From the NCBI GenBank assembly GCA_965226495.1, contig OZ245365.1:1152001-1216000 (forward strand): a stretch of 64,000 nucleotides of DNA. The letters run 5' to 3'. A model generated the notes under the pieces. The model worked only from the letters and a program-made list of their open reading frames with translations. It had not been told where the DNA came from and made no database searches. Shown one piece after another: positions 3,388 to 56,463 of the stretch. Both the position numbers and the translations under genes were made by a program. Source of the DNA: Candidatus Marinacidobacterales bacterium (GTDB lineage: Bacteria > Acidobacteriota > Vicinamibacteria > Marinacidobacterales > DATDRI01). The first letter of the stretch is position 1, and each line of letters starts with the position of its first letter.

Positions 3388-4473
3388 CTAATCAGGCGGC
3401 GGCACATTTTCAACGTCGTGCTCCTGGACCCGGAAGACCCACGTTAGGGGGATCGAGTCTGGTCGATAGCAGATATTGTCGTCACAGGCTTGGTACTGAA
3501 ACGATCCTTCGAGGGTCAGAGTCTTGTCGTATAGGTGCTCGATGGCCTGATGAGGGCCGATGACCACGTCCCGCATGATGCGGAACCTGTCTTCGTAGAC
3601 CGGCACCGTCTCGTCGATGGCGGGGAGATGGAGCGTACGCGACTCCGGGTACTCCGGGTCAAAAGCCCACCATATCTCCGACTCCGGTATCTGCCACTCG
3701 ATGGGGATGTAGCCCTCGACGCCCGGCGCGTAGAGATGCATCTTAGGAGGGAGCTCGACGTCTAGTATGAGAGTCAAGCGATTTCCGGGTCGCACCACGT
3801 CGTCGCTTGCAGACGCCGTCAATTTCAACTGGTTGTTCGTTGCCTCGGTGGCGGTGTTCCCCGCGGGGTCTTCGAAATGACGCACCAGCACGTTGGACGC
3901 CGTATATCGCTCACGGTGGTCTATTTCGAAGAACTTAGCCTCGACGATCCCGTTTTCATCGATGATGAACATCCCGGGGAAGGGGAGGCCATAACTCTCG
4001 TGATCGGGAGCGTAGTTGGTATTCAATATCCCGAAGGCTCTGATGACTTCTGAGTCGGGATCGGACAGGAGGGGGTATGTGATTCCCTTGCGGTCGCCGA
4101 AGTGACGCAGGATCGCCACGCTATCGTACGTGAGCGCCGCGATGTTCAGGCCACGCTCGGCGAAGTCTTGCTTCTTCTCTTCCAGCTCCACGAGCTGGGT
4201 TTTGCAGTACGGTCACCAGTCGGCGGAGCGCACCACCAGGAAGACGAGGCCGGCGGGTCCCTTTAGGTTATCGAAGTTTCGAGTCTTGCGGCTCCGATCC
4301 ACAGCCTGGAAGTCGGGGATCTTGTCTCCAACCTCCGGACCCGTCGTGACCTCGCGGTCGTTCTTCGATAAAGGTATGAGCTCTGCCCGTCCCTGTCCCC
4401 AAGACAGAGGTGCGGTCGTCATTAACAACAGGGTCGCACCCGCCAGCCATCGGTCGAATCGCATCTCCAACAT
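3388..4473 (-). CDS. Exported AhpC/TSA-like redoxin selenoprotein (UxxC) fused to a DsbD N-terminal-like domain
   Basis: ORFs 4213-4473 and 3388-4191 join in frame through TGA 4213-4215: RSADW-U-PYCKTQLVEL; GPEVGDKIPDF, YPLLSD, PGMFIIDENG redoxin motifs; C-terminal MHLYAPG...YQACDDNICYRP; SECIS-like hairpin. Confidence 0.88.
4182..4198 (-). promoter_or_regulatory. Putative bacterial SECIS hairpin
   Basis: CCAGCTC-GTG-GAGCTGG perfect 7-bp stem; loop G lies 22 nt after the UGA. Confidence 0.75.
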
Positions 4474-9445: not shown

Positions 9446-9496
9446 CGGGGATATAGTTCATAGCATGATTCACTCAACACACCAAATCGGCCGGTC

Positions 9497-48919: not shown

Positions 48920-49815
48920 ATGAGCCTACATCAAATCGGCATTCTAGCGCCCGGTCCAAGCCTGGGCCGGTTTCTCTTCTTCCAGCTCGCGCCCGGCGAC
49001 GACCCGCGCGCCGCGGTGAAAGCAATCCAGGGACTGGACGTGGACGAGGATATCGTTGTTGGGTTCGGAAGCTCACTCGTGCTCGCGACGGGTGGCCGTA
49101 TTGATGGCCTTCGGGCTTTCCCTAGCCTTACCGGTCCCGGGATCGAAGTTCCGTCCACGCAGGCTGCCGCTTGGTGTTGGCTCAGAGGCGAAGGCGACCG
49201 CGGTCAATTGGTTCACCGATCGCTCGTGCTCGAACAACTGCTGGAACCACTCATGTTGTCCAGCATCGTCGACAGTTTCAAGCACGACCCGACGCCGTCC
49301 GGACGGGAAGAGACCTATCCGGGTACGAAGACGGTACAGAGAATCCGACCGGCGACAAGGCAATCGCGGCCGCCATCGCGTCGGGAGGAGGCCCAGGGCT
49401 CGATGGCTCGAGCTTCGTCGCCGTGCAGACGTGGCAACACGATCTCGTCGGATTCCAGGCGATGACTCAGGACGAGCGGGACAACATCATTGGACGGCGC
49501 TTACGTGACAACGAGGAGATCGAGGACGCACCGGACTCCGCGCACGTCAAGAGAACCGCGCAAGAGAGTTTCGAGCCAGAGGCGTTTGTTGTCCGTCAAT
49601 CGATGCCATGGGCCGATCCCGACGGGGAAGGCCTCGTCTTCGTTTCATTCGGGCGGACACTCGATGCATTCGAGGCACAACTCAAGCGAATGGTTGGCCT
49701 CGAAGACGGCATCGTCGACGGTCTCTTCCGCTTCTCCCGCCCGGTATCAGGAGGGTACTACTGGTGCCCGCCGGTGGGTGATGGAAAGCTCGACTTGCGC
49801 GCACTAACGAGCTAG
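48920..49815 (+). CDS. DyP-type peroxidase (frameshift near 49303)
   Basis: GRDLSGYEDGTENP, IIGR, SAHVKR, GLFRFSRPVSGGYYWCP. Confidence 0.9.
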
Positions 49816-50464: not shown

Positions 50465-50540
50465 CGCTGGTCGGTGGGCGCGGCAGCGCTGACCGCTTGA
50501 CTTGTCCCGCCTAAAGCGAGAGACTAGCACCGAACGATAC

Positions 50541-50614
50541 GCCTAGGGGTGGCCGCTCGGCCTGAGAGCAAACCCTCGGAACCTGATCCGGTTGATACCG
50601 GCGTAGGGAACGGC
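50541..50614 (+). ncRNA. TPP (THI-box) riboswitch
   Basis: GGGGTG...CTGAGA...ACCC...GAACCTGATCCGGTTGATACCGGCGTAGGGAA consensus. Confidence 0.92.
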
Positions 50615-50692
50615 AGCTGGCTCTTCTGGCATCATAGAAGAGCGGCAATCTCGAACGAGTCGGTCATCTCTAGCGTCAATCTACAAGGGAGA

Positions 50693-53041
50693 ATGACGAT
50701 GCTCGCGACCCAAATTCACCGGCTCCTTCTCACGATGTTGCTAGTCGCGGTGGTTGCGCCCAAGGCGGGGTCTCAAACGCCGATTCGCGTGCAGGGCCTG
50801 GTCGTCGCCCCTACCGGCGAGGGAGTTGCGGCGGCCCGTATCGACATCGATGGCCGCGAGCCCGTTACCCCCGTTACTACCGACGAGAATGGAAACTTCC
50901 AGCTCTCGCTGCCGTCGGGTGAGTGGGAGCTGCGCGTTTCACATCCCGCCTATCGGCTGTTGCGCCACCGCGTGAAAACTGCGGCTCCAAGTGTCGATCT
51001 CGAGCTCCGCCTCGAATGGGTAAGTTCGGTCGAGGAATCGATTACGGTAATCGGGATTCGGGCCGGAGAAGAAGTTCCGGTGACCAAGCGGAACATCGAT
51101 CGTGAGGAGATCGAAAAACTCAGCTATGGGCAGGATGTTACGGAGCTGCTGGAGCACACGCCGTCGATGAACTGGTACTCGGACTCGGGCATCGGGAGCA
51201 ACTACTCCTACTTCAGCCTGCGCGGTATCCAACAGACGCGCATCAGCATGACTTACGACGGCGCGCCGCTCAACGATCCTGCGGAGCACGCCCTGTTCTT
51301 CAACAACTTCCACGACTTTCTGAGCGGCATCGACAGCATTCAAATCCAACGCGGCGTGGGCACCTCGTCGGTCGGCTCGCCCGCGTACGGGGGCTCGGTG
51401 AACTTCGCGAGCTCGCCACCGGCTCAAGACAACCGCGGCGAGGCCCGGTTGGTACTGGGCTCCTACGATACCGCGCGCGCCTCTATCGGGTACGAGTCCG
51501 GTATCTTCGACAACGGGCTCTACGCCTCGGGACGGTTTTCCTACGCCAAATCAGACGGCTATCGCGAGCGTTCCGGCACCGAGCATCACACCTTCTTTCT
51601 GAACACGGGATGGCAGGGGGAGCGTTCTTCGTTAACGCTGGTCGCGTTCTCGGGCGACGAGAAGACGGAGCTCGCCTATCTCGCCGTCGATCCGGACACC
51701 CTGAGCGAAAACCGGCGCTTCAACCCGCTCACCGAGGAAGACCGCGACAACTTCGGCCAAGACTTCGCACAGCTCAAGTACATGCGCGACCTGGGCAGTG
51801 AGACATTGCTGACCGCGTCGTTCTATTACAACGGCGCCGATGGATGGTTCCAGCTCTGGGACGACCCGGTGGCGCAAAACGACCTGCTGCGATTCGGCAT
51901 CGACCAGGGTTTCTTCGGCAGTATGGTAACCATCAGCACCCGCGCCGACAATCTGACGGCCACTCTGGGTGTGCATTACAACGATTTCAGCGGCGACCAT
52001 TTCCTAGACAGCGATGCCGGCGGTCGGGTCTACAAGAACACTGGTTTCAAGGAGACGGCGAATGCCTTTGGCAAGCTCGAGTACCGGCTTGGCGAAACGC
52101 TGCTGTTCGGCGACCTCCATTGGCGTTGGGCCGGTTTCTCGTACGAAGGCGATGTCGATTTGGGCTCGGTCGACTGGAACTTTCTCGATCCCAAGATCGG
52201 CATCCGGCAAACCCTTGCTCCTGGGCTGAGTCTCTACGGCTCGATCGGCAGGGCACAGCGCGAGCCGGCCCGGCTCGATCTGTTGCTGGGTGAGGACAAC
52301 GCCAGCCTTCCGCACGACCTCGAAGCGGTGAAACGCGAGTCGGTGGTGAACTTCGAGGGCGGGGTCAATCTCAACACGCCCCGGCTCGGCTTGCAGGCCA
52401 ACGTCTACCTGATGGAGTTCCGGAACGAGATCGCTTTGACAGGAGAGCTGTCCGAGGTCGGCCTGCCGCTAAGGCGCAATGTCGATCGCTCGTACCGCCG
52501 TGGCGCCGAAATCGACCTCAAGTGGATGCCGGTGCCGAATTGGTCGGTATTGCACAGCCTCAACGTGAGCCGCAACCGTATCAAAGAATGGATCCAGTTC
52601 TACGACGTCTTTGACGAAGAAGGAGCATGGGCCGGGAGCGAGCCGATCGCTTACCAAAACGTGCGGCCGCTTCTGTCGCCCGAGCTGGTGTTCAATCTCG
52701 GTGTGGAATGGGCACGCCGCGACACCAGCGTTGGCCTCATGGGTCGCTACGTGGCCGCATCCCAGCTCGACAACACCGGGCTCTCCCGATTCCGGACACC
52801 CTCTTTCGCCAACTTGGACTTGCGGGCCTCGCAGACCCTGGGTCGCTGGTGGCGAGGAGCCGATGCGCGCATCACTTTGTTCGTCAACAACCTGTTAGAT
52901 AATCTCGATCAGTTGCCCAGCGGCTACAGTTATCAATTCCTCGTTCGGGATGGCGCCGGCATGGATACGCTCGACGGCATCCCCTTTTACTATCCCTTGG
53001 CCACTCGCAACTTCGTCGTCTCGCTGGAGCTAGGTTTTTAA
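50693..53041 (+). CDS. TonB-dependent receptor, probably for thiamine
   Basis: Carboxypeptidase-regulatory-like N-domain, plug RGI...IQIQRGVGTS, C-terminal Phe; downstream of the TPP riboswitch. Confidence 0.9.
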   Translation: MTMLATQIHRLLLTMLLVAVVAPKAGSQTPIRVQGLVVAPTGEGVAAARIDIDGREPVTPVTTDENGNFQLSLPSGEWELRVSHPAYRLLRHRVKTAAPSVDLELRLEWVSSVEESITVIGIRAGEEVPVTKRNIDREEIEKLSYGQDVTELLEHTPSMNWYSDSGIGSNYSYFSLRGIQQTRISMTYDGAPLNDPAEHALFFNNFHDFLSGIDSIQIQRGVGTSSVGSPAYGGSVNFASSPPAQDNRGEARLVLGSYDTARASIGYESGIFDNGLYASGRFSYAKSDGYRERSGTEHHTFFLNTGWQGERSSLTLVAFSGDEKTELAYLAVDPDTLSENRRFNPLTEEDRDNFGQDFAQLKYMRDLGSETLLTASFYYNGADGWFQLWDDPVAQNDLLRFGIDQGFFGSMVTISTRADNLTATLGVHYNDFSGDHFLDSDAGGRVYKNTGFKETANAFGKLEYRLGETLLFGDLHWRWAGFSYEGDVDLGSVDWNFLDPKIGIRQTLAPGLSLYGSIGRAQREPARLDLLLGEDNASLPHDLEAVKRESVVNFEGGVNLNTPRLGLQANVYLMEFRNEIALTGELSEVGLPLRRNVDRSYRRGAEIDLKWMPVPNWSVLHSLNVSRNRIKEWIQFYDVFDEEGAWAGSEPIAYQNVRPLLSPELVFNLGVEWARRDTSVGLMGRYVAASQLDNTGLSRFRTPSFANLDLRASQTLGRWWRGADARITLFVNNLLDNLDQLPSGYSYQFLVRDGAGMDTLDGIPFYYPLATRNFVVSLELGF

Positions 53042-53059
53042 GTCCGCTACTTCTAAGTC

Positions 53060-53623
53060 GTGTTTTCCCTCGAGCTGGTCGCCGTCGTCCTCACACTGGT
53101 GGCCGTCTACCTGACGGCGCGCCAGATCATCTGGTGCTGGCCGCTCGCCATGGTCAGCGTCGTCCTGTACGCAGCGGTCTTCTACGACGTCCGACTGTAC
53201 GCCGATATGGGGCTACAGGGTCTGTACTTTGGGCTGGCCGCCTACGGCTGGTGGGCGTGGCTGCGCGGCGGTGAGGATCATGGCGAGCTCGAGGTTTCCC
53301 TGACCTCGAGCCGGACGCGGGTGGTGCTGGTGGTGGTCGCGACACTCGGCGGGATTTTGCTGGGTCAGATCCTGATGCGCTTCACCAACGCGTCGCTGCC
53401 ATTCATGGATTCGATGCTCACCTCGTTTAGCATCGCGGCCCAGTGGATGCAGACCCGAAAGCTACTAGAATCCTGGCTGGTGTGGCTTGCCGTTGATGTT
53501 TTTTACGTCGGCATGTTCTTGTACAAGGGGCTCTACCCGACGGCGGGACTGTACGCCGCCTTTCTTGTCCTCGCTGTAATGGGTTTCACCGAGTGGCGAC
53601 GCTCGATGCGAGGCGCGCGATGA
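53060..53623 (+). CDS. pnuC: PnuC-family transporter (PnuT-like)
   Basis: LYADMGLQ, YGWWAW, DS...AQW...RKLLESWLVWLAVD. Confidence 0.9.
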   Translation: MFSLELVAVVLTLVAVYLTARQIIWCWPLAMVSVVLYAAVFYDVRLYADMGLQGLYFGLAAYGWWAWLRGGEDHGELEVSLTSSRTRVVLVVVATLGGILLGQILMRFTNASLPFMDSMLTSFSIAAQWMQTRKLLESWLVWLAVDVFYVGMFLYKGLYPTAGLYAAFLVLAVMGFTEWRRSMRGAR

Positions 53624-54144
53624 TCCGCGTCGTGGTGACCGGCTCCGAATGCACCGGCAAGACGAAGCTCGCCGAGGCGATTGCCACACACTACGAGACC
53701 GTCTGGGTCCCGGAGTTCGCTCGCCAGTTCGTGATCGACAAAGGCGCCGCTCCCGTGTACGAAGATGTCGAGACCATCGCCCGCGGCCAAATCGCCCTAG
53801 AGGACCACAAAGCCGGCGAGGCATCCAGCCTACTTCTTCAAGATACCGATCTACTCAGCACCATCGTCTATAGCCGCCACTACTTCGGTGATTGCCCCCA
53901 CTGGATCGAGGAGGCTTTCGAGAAACGAGCCGCCGGCCTATACCTTCTAGCCGGCATTGACGTTCCCTGGGTACCCGAAGGGGAGCAACGCGACCGCGGA
54001 GACCGGCGCGAAGAGATGCACGAGCTATTCCGGAGCGCCCTGGTCGATCGCCGCCTGACCTATGCCGAGATAGGTGGGGCAAGGGGTGAGCGATTGGAAG
54101 CGGCGGTGTCGCGGATCGACCAGCTTCTTAGTCGAGGCCGCTGA
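53620..54144 (+). CDS. NadR-type P-loop kinase domain protein
   Basis: GSECTGKT, VPEFAR, DTD, DVPWV...RD. Confidence 0.88.
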   Translation: MIRVVVTGSECTGKTKLAEAIATHYETVWVPEFARQFVIDKGAAPVYEDVETIARGQIALEDHKAGEASSLLLQDTDLLSTIVYSRHYFGDCPHWIEEAFEKRAAGLYLLAGIDVPWVPEGEQRDRGDRREEMHELFRSALVDRRLTYAEIGGARGERLEAAVSRIDQLLSRGR

Positions 54145-54279: not shown

Positions 54280-54789
54280 CTAACGCACGTCGTCAACTGT
54301 TAGGCGAGGGGCTTTGTCTCCCTCCGGGGCGTGGAAAACTCCTGACACGCTCACCTCAGTGTCGTTGTCCAGCTTCTCAAGCTCGTCCGAGGCCTTATCA
54401 CCCTCCAGGAGGATTAGCATATCCAGACTGGACTCATACCCGACTCGGAGCGCTAGGGCATTCTCCACCCTCTCCAATGTGCCCTTAACGTCAACCTTCA
54501 CTTTGCCCGCTGAGAAGCCAGCGGCCTCGACGGCCTTGGCAATCTGTGCCGGATCGAAAGAGTGGTCCGGTTCGGCAAGGATCACGGTCTCGCCCGTGTC
54601 GAGACTCATCACTTCAGCGTCCTGAACGCCATCCAGGCGTTCCAGAGCCGTCTCGGCCCCGTGTGCTCACAACCCTCACGTCATGCCCTGAATCCAGGTT
54701 CGGGCTTCTTGGACTTGGGCAAAGGCTACTCCCGACAATGCGTGGCAGAGAATAATTGTACTTAGTGATAGGAGCGTTCTCACTTTCAT
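54280..54789 (-). CDS. Secreted HMA-domain (MerP/CopZ-like) selenoprotein with GMT-U-G-L-U motif and C-terminal beta domain, 169 aa
   Basis: ATG 54789 with AGAGGA RBS; MKVRTLLSLSTIILCHALSGVAFAQVQEARTWIQGMT-TGA-GL-TGA-AHGAETALERLDGVQDAEV...IAKAVEAAGF; TGAs at 54676-54678 and 54667-54669; in frame with ORF 54280-54612. Confidence 0.85.
54624..54660 (-). promoter_or_regulatory. Two tandem SECIS-like hairpins
   Basis: GGGGCC-GAGAC-GGCTCT (54644-54660) and GAACGCC-TGGAT-GGCGTTC (54624-54642). Confidence 0.65.
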
Positions 54790-54810
54790 GTCGTTAGGTC
54801 CTCTCTTTTG

Positions 54811-55662
54811 CTAGTGAAGGTATCGAAACCCTGTTACGAACACCCAGTCTTTATTCAACCGATGACCGTTCAACTCCTGGTACACGGGGAGTTGGACAGA
54901 CAACTCCAATATCAAGTTGCGCCGCAAGAAGACTTCAACTCCCGGCGAGACAAAAACGGACTCGCCACCCGTTGCAAGGATCTCCGTCCCGTCACGGTTC
55001 GACCGGCTCTCAATGAAGGAGTTGACTTCCAACACGACGAATAGGTCGTTTCGCTCCGGGTACCGGAGGAGGCGATACATGACGGATGCGTCCAGCTGCA
55101 GAAGGTTCCCCGCCTTGAACCCGCTCTCTTTCGTCGTTGCTGTCCACTGGAAATCGGTGTTGACGAACCAACTAGTCGTTGCGTGGGTAAAAATAAGCCC
55201 CTGAAGAAGGTCCGTCGCTCCGGTCGAGAAACCCTCTTGGCCCCAAGGTACCTTCACTCCCAAGAAACCCGCCAGCCGAGAAAAACCACCAGGCCGGTTT
55301 TTCGCATAGAGCCCGTCGTACTGCACGAAAAACATTGGGTCCGCCAAGCTCGTGTCTCTTGGTTGGCCGCCCGGTGAGCCGCTGACTACGGGTACCATAG
55401 CGACCCACATGAGGTGGCGTGGTAGACCGAAGACGAACGTGTTTTCCCAGGCCATCACCGTGTGGTCTCGGTCACGCTCGGGGCGACCGTCCGTGACATC
55501 TAGCGACGGAGGAGATCGTTTCAGGACTCGCCAATCAGACCGATAGAGAAAGTTGCGGACGAACAAAGTTCTAGCCCCGGGGGAGTTGATTTGCCCAGAT
55601 AGGGGCAAGTGCTGAAGCAACAAAACGGACGCCAGGACAAATCGGAGACAGATTAGTCGCAC
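54811..55662 (-). CDS. Putative outer-membrane beta-barrel transporter (MetA-pathway/COG4313-like)
   Basis: Signal peptide, amphipathic strands, GVKVPWG, GGESVFVSPG, VQLPVYQELNG, GFRY near the C-terminus. Confidence 0.7.
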   Translation of the reverse strand: MRLICLRFVLASVLLLQHLPLSGQINSPGARTLFVRNFLYRSDWRVLKRSPPSLDVTDGRPERDRDHTVMAWENTFVFGLPRHLMWVAMVPVVSGSPGGQPRDTSLADPMFFVQYDGLYAKNRPGGFSRLAGFLGVKVPWGQEGFSTGATDLLQGLIFTHATTSWFVNTDFQWTATTKESGFKAGNLLQLDASVMYRLLRYPERNDLFVVLEVNSFIESRSNRDGTEILATGGESVFVSPGVEVFLRRNLILELSVQLPVYQELNGHRLNKDWVFVTGFRYLH

Positions 55663-55835
55663 GGCGTAAGTCTAGTTACCCGGCCAGAGGTTACCCAAAC
55701 AACACCTACCCTCAGGGTTTCGCAACTCGCAAGCCGAGCGCCCAGCTTCCACGTGTGCATGGATGCGCGATTCGGCAGCGTCGGCGTCACACCGAAGCCG
55801 GCGGCGACGGCTCCGAAACCGCTCCATTTGGACAT
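55653..55835 (-). pseudogene. Possible MerT-like N-terminal remnant
   Basis: Strong RBS (GAGGAG) right after the merR stop; MSKWSGFGAVAAGFG resembles MerT TM1 but diverges before the CC motif. Confidence 0.35.
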
Positions 55836-55844
55836 GACATCTCC

Positions 55845-56463
55845 TCAGGCTTTCTCGTCGGATACGTCGGCAATCACCGGGCATCTCGAACCCTGGTCAA
55901 TCGCCTGAGCGCATTGGTCCCGGTAGTTAGACATTTGTCGATGGAAGCGCTTCATTTCTTTACCCTGCTGGGCGATCTCGACTATTTTCTTGTCGAGGAT
56001 GCCCAACACGCGACGGCAGCTCCCGGGGTTGTCCGGCCGGAGGCCCAGGAGTACCGAGATCTCGTCGAGAGCGAAACCAAAACCCTGCGCGCGTTTGATG
56101 AAACTCAGACGCTGCTCAGCTTTGGGCCCATAAAGGCGGAGAGCCTGATCTGGAACGCCGCTTCATTTCTTTACCCTGCTGGGCGATCTCGACTATTTTC
56201 TTGTCGAGGATGCCCAACACGCGAAGCTCCCGGGGTTGTCCGGCCGGAGGCCCAGGAGTACCGAGATCTCGTCCGAAACCAAAACCCTGCGCGCGTTTGA
56301 TGAAACTCAGACGCTGCTCAGCTTTGGGCCCATAAAGGCGGTAGCCTGATCTGGAACGCCGGCTGGGTTTGAGAATGCCGCGCCGCTCGTAGTACCGGAG
56401 GGTTTCGCGGTTCACACCGGCCCGCAGAGCTAATTCACCGATGAGAAGCGAGTCGTTCTTCAT
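55845..56463 (-). CDS. MerR-family heavy-metal-responsive regulator, disrupted by an approximately 211-bp imperfect duplication
   Basis: IGELALRAGVNRETLRYYERRGIL...SGYRLY...FIKRAQGFGFALDEI...SCRRV...DQCAQAIDQGSRCPVI*; three Cys ligands. Confidence 0.88.
55948..56361. repeat. Imperfect tandem duplication inside merR
   Basis: 55948-56160 repeated at 56159-56361 with small deletions. Confidence 0.85.

Follow-up and report, generated by a model that had tools for sequence, protein, structure and literature searches.

Two adjoining hairpins follow the paired UGA codons of a UxxU metal-binding selenoprotein gene in a Marinacidobacterales bacterium

Results

A selenoprotein gene with UGA at both metal-ligand codons

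We analysed a stretch of 64,000 nucleotides from a Candidatus Marinacidobacterales bacterium (contig OZ245365.1, positions 1,152,001 to 1,216,000 of the forward strand), hereafter the window, and within it a gene whose two in-frame UGA codons are each followed by a hairpin resembling a bacterial selenocysteine insertion sequence (SECIS). The gene lies on the minus strand (54280..54789) and runs for 170 codons from an ATG at 54789 to a TAG at 54282-54280. Translated with TGA as selenocysteine (Sec, U), it yields a protein of 169 residues in which the motif Q-G-M-T-U-G-L-U-A-H-G comes after a signal-peptide-like N-terminus. The first UGA (UGA#1; codon 38, 54676..54678, minus strand) and the second (UGA#2; codon 41, 54667..54669, minus strand) stand at the first and second Cys positions of CxxC, respectively, such that the GMTCxxC motif is spelled GMT-UGA-GGG-UUG-UGA in this gene and both of the metal-binding cysteines are encoded by UGA. 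The gene is a UxxU selenoprotein gene for a secreted HMA-type metal-binding protein, with UGA for both metal-ligand cysteines. We infer that Sec, rather than Cys or Trp, is inserted at each UGA and that SelB binds to each hairpin.

The HMA domain comprises residues 32–92 and passes the Pfam threshold comfortably (PF00403; 44.2 bits against a cut-off of 24.8). An AlphaFold2 model of the protein, built on a 22-row alignment, has a mean pLDDT (predicted local distance difference test) score of 89.6. Its first domain is ferredoxin-like and was found by Foldseek to superpose on CopZ, MerP and the metal-binding domains of ATPases (target-normalised template modelling scores of 0.79–0.86), and the C-terminal ~75 residues form a beta-rich domain for which the OB-fold-like matches were weak. 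The protein falls below the cut-offs of both NCBIfam NF041115 (UxxU metal-binding (seleno)protein; 44.7 vs 95 bits) and the MerP family TIGR02052 (33.7 vs 92.55 bits), and no mer genes were found beside it. Its C-terminal domain also contains a 9-nt insertion (Gly-Tyr-Glu, residues 117–119; 54433-54441) that is absent from all six aligned close homologs.

A Shine-Dalgarno-like GAGAGGA (54799..54805, minus strand) lies 9 nt upstream of the ATG and may serve as the ribosome-binding site. Upstream of the selenoprotein gene, on the same strand and 21 nt away, there is a gene for a MetA-pathway-like outer-membrane channel (54811..55662; Pfam PF13557, 26.9 bits against a cut-off of 22), and the two genes probably form one operon.

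Two hairpins without a linker

In the bacterial SelB pathway, UGA is not read as Sec without some SECIS. RNA positions are numbered here from the U of UGA#1 (nt 1), which places UGA#2 at nt 10–12. The proposed SECIS for UGA#1 is the hairpin H1 (54643..54661, minus strand; nt 18–36). In the ViennaRNA fold, C18-G25 of H1 is paired with C29-G36 to give 8 bp, two of them G-U, around the loop AGA, or alternatively, with G25-C29 open, 7 bp around the loop GAGAC. The candidate SECIS for UGA#2 is the hairpin H2 (54624..54642, minus strand; nt 37–55), a perfect 7-bp stem in which G37-C43 is paired with G49-C55 around the loop UGGAU (GAACGCC/TGGAT/GGCGTTC). The two hairpins directly adjoin, with a linker of 0, and their bare energies are −10.8 kcal/mol for H1 and −11.0 kcal/mol for H2. 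Their top three pairs, GCC/GGC, are common to both and are followed by 5-nt purine-rich loops (GAGAC and UGGAU).

A preliminary description of this locus, made from the letters alone, had proposed two tandem SECIS-like hairpins, and its structural claims are borne out. Its first hairpin (GGGGCC/GAGAC/GGCTCT, 54660-54644) is present with six pairs, two of them G-U, and is extended to 8 bp by ViennaRNA; and its second (54642-54624) is indeed a perfect 7-bp stem. The distances that it gave are also correct, with the loop G of H1 located 22 nt past the A of UGA#1 and the loop of H2 starting 32 nt past the A of UGA#2.

The elongating ribosome covers about 12–13 nt on the 3' side of the first A-site nucleotide, and the RNA was folded with its 5' edge placed on this basis. 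With the edge at nt 14, corresponding to UGA#1 in the A site, the predicted pair probabilities are 0.92 for H1 and 0.95 for H2. With the edge at nt 23, corresponding to UGA#2 in the A site, they are 0.00 and 0.99, respectively. In the latter fold the freed 3' arm of H1 (54650-54644, nt 29–35) is predicted to pair with nt 57–64 (54615..54622, minus strand; pair probability 0.85), lengthening H2 to 14 bp. This extension, a prediction only, is no better than its synonymous alternatives, among which the native sequence is tied for ranks 33–64 of 128.

Each UGA has one compliant hairpin

The Zhang and Gladyshev model of the bacterial SECIS (bSECIS), as set out in PMC13188914, calls for an apical loop of 3–9 nt, an upper stem of 4–16 bp, a G in loop position 1 or 2, 16–37 nt between UGA and loop, and an energy of −7.5 kcal/mol or lower. 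We scanned the gene with these constraints, considering perfect stems only. The sole compliant hairpin for UGA#1 is H1 (21–22 nt, −10.8 kcal/mol) and the sole compliant hairpin for UGA#2 is H2 (31 nt, −11.0 kcal/mol; G at loop position 2), and the loop and stem sizes of both are within the limits (8 bp/3 nt or 7 bp/5 nt for H1; 7 bp/5 nt for H2). Both cross-assignments fall outside the 16–37 nt range, H1 being too near to UGA#2 (12–13 nt) and H2 too far from UGA#1 (40 nt). The model thus matches each UGA to one hairpin, and a different one in each case. A compliant hairpin of −11 kcal/mol or lower follows 212 of 16,793 background codon positions. No SECIS family was found by Rfam in 54500-54800 at expect values up to 10, where a chance snoRNA match was the only result, and at gathering scores the whole window returned a thiamine pyrophosphate (TPP) riboswitch and nothing else.

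The window contains a second selenoprotein gene that provides an internal reference. It encodes an AhpC/TSA redoxin fused to DsbD_N (3388..4473, minus strand), with the motif W-U-P-Y-C and a UGA at 4215-4213. The redoxin gene has a signal-peptide-like start and would be broken in two by gene callers, at its UGA. Its SECIS hairpin (4182..4198, minus strand; nt 18–34 from its own UGA) has a 7-bp stem, the loop GUG, an energy of −10.0 kcal/mol and 21 nt between UGA and loop. H1 and the redoxin hairpin alike have a stem beginning at nt 18 and a G at nt 25, each counted from the respective UGA, in agreement with the equal spacing of the loop G claimed in the preliminary description. This shared geometry is the strongest single argument for H1 as the SECIS of UGA#1, an assignment which we regard as very probable. 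For UGA#2, H2 is plausible as a dedicated SECIS, at slightly less than even confidence. The presence of a second selenoprotein gene speaks for the Sec trait in this genome.

The hairpin pair exceeds chance expectation

Both hairpin segments are more stable than nearly all of their shuffles. The 27-nt H1 segment folds at −12.4 kcal/mol (z = −3.3), as good a value being reached by 1 of 200 shuffles, and the 27-nt H2 segment folds at −13.8 kcal/mol (z = −4.2), which no shuffle out of 200 equalled. The same was true (0/200) of the 58 nt counted from UGA#2, at −26.2 kcal/mol. As a second null we generated 5,000 synonymous recodings in which the peptide was kept and codons were drawn from the usage of the window. 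The native energy was reached by 288 of the 5,000 for H1, by 128 for H2 (placing it in the top 2.6%) and by 11 for both together. The native total was reached by 365/5,000 around a recoding mean of −19.3 kcal/mol, since this peptide by its nature calls for G+C-rich RNA that folds readily. For a genomic background, the same offsets were applied to 16,899 in-frame codon positions in 53 open reading frames (ORFs) of the window, of which 148 reached the native energy of H1, 60 that of H2 (top 0.36%) and 2 that of both. The pair of hairpins is therefore more than chance would provide.

Relatives of the gene and of the hairpins

A word-indexed search returned 7 proteins, including that of the window. 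Five of these begin at Met-61 and are therefore proteins cut by an upstream stop. Another, P0004, starts with the codon for Leu-40, after which Cys follows at position 41. A search for short proteins recovered 37-residue ORFs that end just before codon 38 in two further genomes. Taken together, these sequences suggest a stop at codon 38 common to at least four genomes, one of which (P0004 with a 37-residue N-terminal ORF) appears to be of the form U-G-L-C. In a tree intended to polarise U versus C at codon 41, for which P0004 was trimmed to the shared Met start, the close group did not resolve, 6 of its 8 inner branches being open. Further afield, many proteins of ~170 residues with the same architecture and 25–36% identity emerged from an exhaustive HMMER search, and in every one of the 15 aligned full-length homologs both UGA columns are occupied by C-x-x-C (14 CPFC, 1 CNLC). 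Four distant truncated proteins at 35–44% identity (P0031, P0079, P0132 and P0141) may be additional members of the Sec type.

At the DNA level, a scan of genome contigs confirmed 3 loci out of 141 pattern matches. L001, from a Candidatus Marinacidobacterales metagenome-assembled genome, is the only close relative among them and is the one relative whose stems were compared with those of the window. It is 89% identical to the window over 574 nt; codon 38 is TGA and codon 41 TAA, and one nucleotide is deleted at codon 4/5. In this region of L001 (2751-4489), a Mutator-family transposase gene lies just upstream, and the channel gene is reduced to its last 12 codons. We read the HMA gene of L001 as a recently inactivated copy; databases list it in its decayed state as a 106-residue protein. 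Between the window and L001, the ratio of non-synonymous to synonymous substitution rates (dN/dS) comes to 0.22 over codons 6–60 and 0.46 over codons 61–169. These low values show purifying selection across the UGA region, and the sequence upstream of and across the UGAs has therefore evolved as translated protein. At codon 41 a single transition separates the TGA of the window from the TAA of L001, so that TGA is the likelier codon here in their common ancestor.

Four substitutions separate L001 from the window in nt 13–69 (G21A, G27A, A39G and G57C). The two that fall in stems both keep pairing, with G21A turning a G-U pair of H1 into A-U and A39G an A-U pair of H2 into G-U; both are one-sided purine transitions opposite U, with no double compensatory change, and count as weak evidence. 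G27A is located in the H1 loop of L001, where the loop G is then kept only in the 5-nt reading GAAAC, and G57C is non-synonymous and outside the stems of both H1 and H2. L002, a CxxC HMA gene of a different family (41% identical), folds at only −7.9 and −6.3 kcal/mol at the two offsets. L003 was dropped as a comparison, its match being to residues 76–111 only.

Other features of the window

Three further UGA pairs in the window were rejected as selenoproteins. The pair at 9472/9460 precedes a sulfatase start and lies opposite a gene for a luciferase-like monooxygenase, and those at 49215/49206 and 29449/29440 coincide in part with longer ORFs, either in another frame or on the opposite strand. 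The TPP riboswitch (66.8 bits) belongs to the region 50535-54144, where it lies directly 5' of a TonB-dependent receptor gene followed by genes for a PnuC-like transporter and an AAA_28 (NadR-like) protein; the arrangement resembles an operon for the uptake or salvage of thiamine. A tandem duplication at 55948-56361, located between the channel gene and a radical-SAM/B12 gene, is near-perfect, has a ~205-bp period and contains 100% identical blocks of 66, 49, 68 and 19 nt with small offsets; it gives rise to a repeated peptide in the ORF 55755-56300. A segment formed by the 3' arm of H1 and the 5' arm of H2 (54636-54654) is 83–84% complementary over 18–19 nt to 56141-56159 and 56343-56360, such that the complementary sequence occurs in both copies of the duplication ~1.5 kb away; the match may be due to chance.

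Discussion

The layout of the gene suggests a two-signal system, in which two closely spaced Sec residues are inserted with the help of adjoining hairpins. The reading that we favour, tentatively and at slightly less than even confidence, is a relay in which H1 acts for UGA#1 and then H2 for UGA#2, and we infer that the hand-over between them is sequential. While UGA#1 occupies the A site, H1 would be held at the SECIS place of this organism (stem start 14 nt past the UGA, loop G at nt 25) and would present SelB with Sec-tRNA to UGA#1. Three codons on, the ribosome would have begun to unwind H1, which would now also be 9 nt too close. For these two reasons H1 would be unusable for UGA#2 in the usual way, and UGA#2 would therefore need either H2 or a position-independent route. 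H2 would stay folded as the sole SECIS-like hairpin in range (31 nt from UGA#2 to UGGAU) and would deliver the second Sec. A relay had been put forward in the preliminary description. It gains from the finding of one compliant hairpin, and a different one, for each UGA, from the position of the UGAs in the Cys columns and from the geometry shared by H1 and the redoxin hairpin. It loses from the different spacings of H1 and H2.

Several observations weigh against the relay. The distance from UGA to loop is 31 nt for H2 and UGA#2 vs 21 nt for H1 and UGA#1, that is 10 nt farther, such that there is no geometry common to the two. When more of the flanking sequence is folded, the minimum-energy structure retains H1 but leaves just 3 bp of H2, whose lower four pairs give way to pairing of nt 10–14 (including UGA#2) with nt 52–56; the ensemble still assigns H2 a mean pair probability of 0.74–0.91 in such contexts, and in a context of 190 nt the values are 0.96 for H1 and 0.91 for H2. 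Synonymous divergence from L001 (dS) is 0.23 in the hairpin region, which is not below the 0.24 found downstream. In the CxxC gene L002, the equivalent 57 nt fold at −25.6 kcal/mol vs −24.8 kcal/mol here. As DNA, TGA at codon 41 was seen in the window only, the codon being TAA in L001 and Cys in P0004. Neither selA, selB, selC or selD machinery nor any tRNA gene was found within the 64-kb window. Finally, a single SECIS has been proposed for both UGAs of the UXXU hydrogenases discussed below (PMC13582414).

The best of the alternatives, which we nevertheless consider unlikely, involves one SECIS only. Here, H1 would serve UGA#1 and UGA#2 would be read by Cys insertion of the tRNA-ReC type, by near-cognate read-through or by a lingering SelB complex, with H2 relegated to a by-product or an element that slows the ribosome. 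It draws on the fact that the canonical spacing of the organism is held by H1 alone, that of H2 being non-canonical, and on the existence of the U-G-L-C form, as well as on the enrichment of tRNA-ReC reported for genomes with UXXU hydrogenases (PMC13582414). H2, however, ranks in the top fraction of a percent of window positions and among the best few percent of recodings, has a G at loop position 2 and is within the model range for UGA#2, all of which sit poorly with an incidental role.

A variant of the two-hairpin arrangement that we rate as quite unlikely is a ribosome-driven two-state SECIS, in which the unwound arm of H1 would re-register the signal by three codons for UGA#2. The lengthened 14-bp H2 would start 16 nt past UGA#2, near the 14 nt of H1. 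If such a two-state SECIS were true, two Sec insertions in direct succession would make a diselenolate metal site, by a mechanism that is undescribed in bacteria for close UGAs.

It is improbable that UGA#2 is a true stop, the gene being a UxxC selenoprotein copy that is dead or dying and the hairpins being leftovers. The state of L001 is what such decay would look like, with its TAA, its frameshifting deletion near the start and an insertion sequence cutting the upstream gene, and P0004 has Cys at codon 41 with no further TGA at that codon seen as DNA. The ORF in the window, on the other hand, is otherwise intact and retains a ribosome-binding site, a signal peptide and an operon partner. Moreover, the single transition between TGA and TAA points to an ancestral TGA, the part downstream is itself under purifying selection, and two TGAs placed exactly on both Cys codons are unlike random decay.

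Highly improbable, in our view, is a composite SECIS that serves both UGAs, either H2 alone or H1 and H2 stacked end to end. The proposal of a single SECIS for the UXXU hydrogenases offers a precedent, stacking would be possible for hairpins without a linker, and the loop of H2 (UGGAU) is closer than that of H1 to the common G[G/U] pattern. Against this, the H2 loop lies beyond the model range from UGA#1, the geometry of H1 relative to UGA#1 is exactly that of the redoxin hairpin, and H1 is necessarily unwound before UGA#2 is read. Least probable of all is that the hairpins are coding by-products of the HMA helix in a 59% G+C genome with no role at the RNA level, since, although the recoding mean and the 365 recodings at the native total, the stable fold of the L002 CxxC gene and the lack of excess synonymous conservation all fit this view, the two hairpins are jointly rare at the given offsets among both recodings and background positions, H1 has the geometry of the redoxin SECIS, and a Sec reading of UGA requires some SECIS.

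Bacterial SECIS elements, UxxU motifs and UxxU HMA proteins have each been published already (PMC13188914, PMC9312934 and PMC2398784). We found no description of an adjoining pair of bacterial SECIS elements that divide nearby UGAs between them in a literature search that left out subscription journals and supplementary files; among the matches were work on eukaryotic selenoprotein P, general reviews and an archaeal study. Like the bacterial SECIS of the E. coli fdhF type, H1 and H2 are hairpins within the coding region just 3' of a UGA, with a small loop and an early G; unlike it, they stand back to back for UGAs only 9 nt apart. The common bacterial SECIS loop has G followed by G or U, which the loop of H1 (GAGAC/AGA) lacks, and the bulged U of the E. 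coli element has no evident counterpart in H1 or H2. The E. coli upper stem starts 11 nt past the UGA (PMC8659212), compared with 14 nt in both H1 and the redoxin hairpin and with 24 nt in H2. Vertebrate selenoprotein P is alike in having more than one SECIS in an mRNA with several UGAs, and in dividing the labour between them. It is unlike in its use of the eukaryotic SBP2/eEFSec system and of distant SECIS elements in the 3' untranslated region, not hairpins in frame.

Among the known protein families, NF041115 also has an HMA-type domain with Sec for both motif cysteines and is listed as 'putative mercuric reductase' in PMC13188914 and PMC9312934. The window protein differs from it in scoring well short of the family cut-off, at about its CopZ score, and goes beyond it in having a signal peptide and the C-terminal beta domain, which it shares with the ~170-residue CPFC family. 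The gene also extends the known set of UxxU metal-binding selenoproteins by a secreted HMA protein whose C-terminal domain is beta-rich.

A parallel in decoding is provided by the UXXU Group 4 [NiFeSe] hydrogenases, described in a 2026 survey (PMC13582414) that states the decoding of both UGAs as an open question. As here, two UGAs three codons apart replace a bacterial metal-binding CxxC. For UGAs at this distance, the same survey suggests either a single SECIS or a Cys-inserting tRNA, namely tRNA-ReC, which is enriched in the genomes with UXXU hydrogenases and would place Cys at UGA. In the hydrogenases, as the survey proposes, one SECIS is set for the second UGA (and shared with the CXXU forms) and the extra UGA is farther away. 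In the window gene, which belongs to another protein family, it is the first UGA for which the canonical hairpin is placed, the extra UGA is nearer and a second hairpin comes after; the second hairpin may be present because the extra UGA is too near to the canonical one. The gene is thus a natural test case with a layout opposite to that of the UXXU hydrogenases. Should H1 and H2 each serve one UGA, chaining of bacterial SECIS elements would be shown to be possible, and this would matter both for finding genes with multiple Sec codons, which gene callers now cut up, and for engineering vicinal Sec residues.

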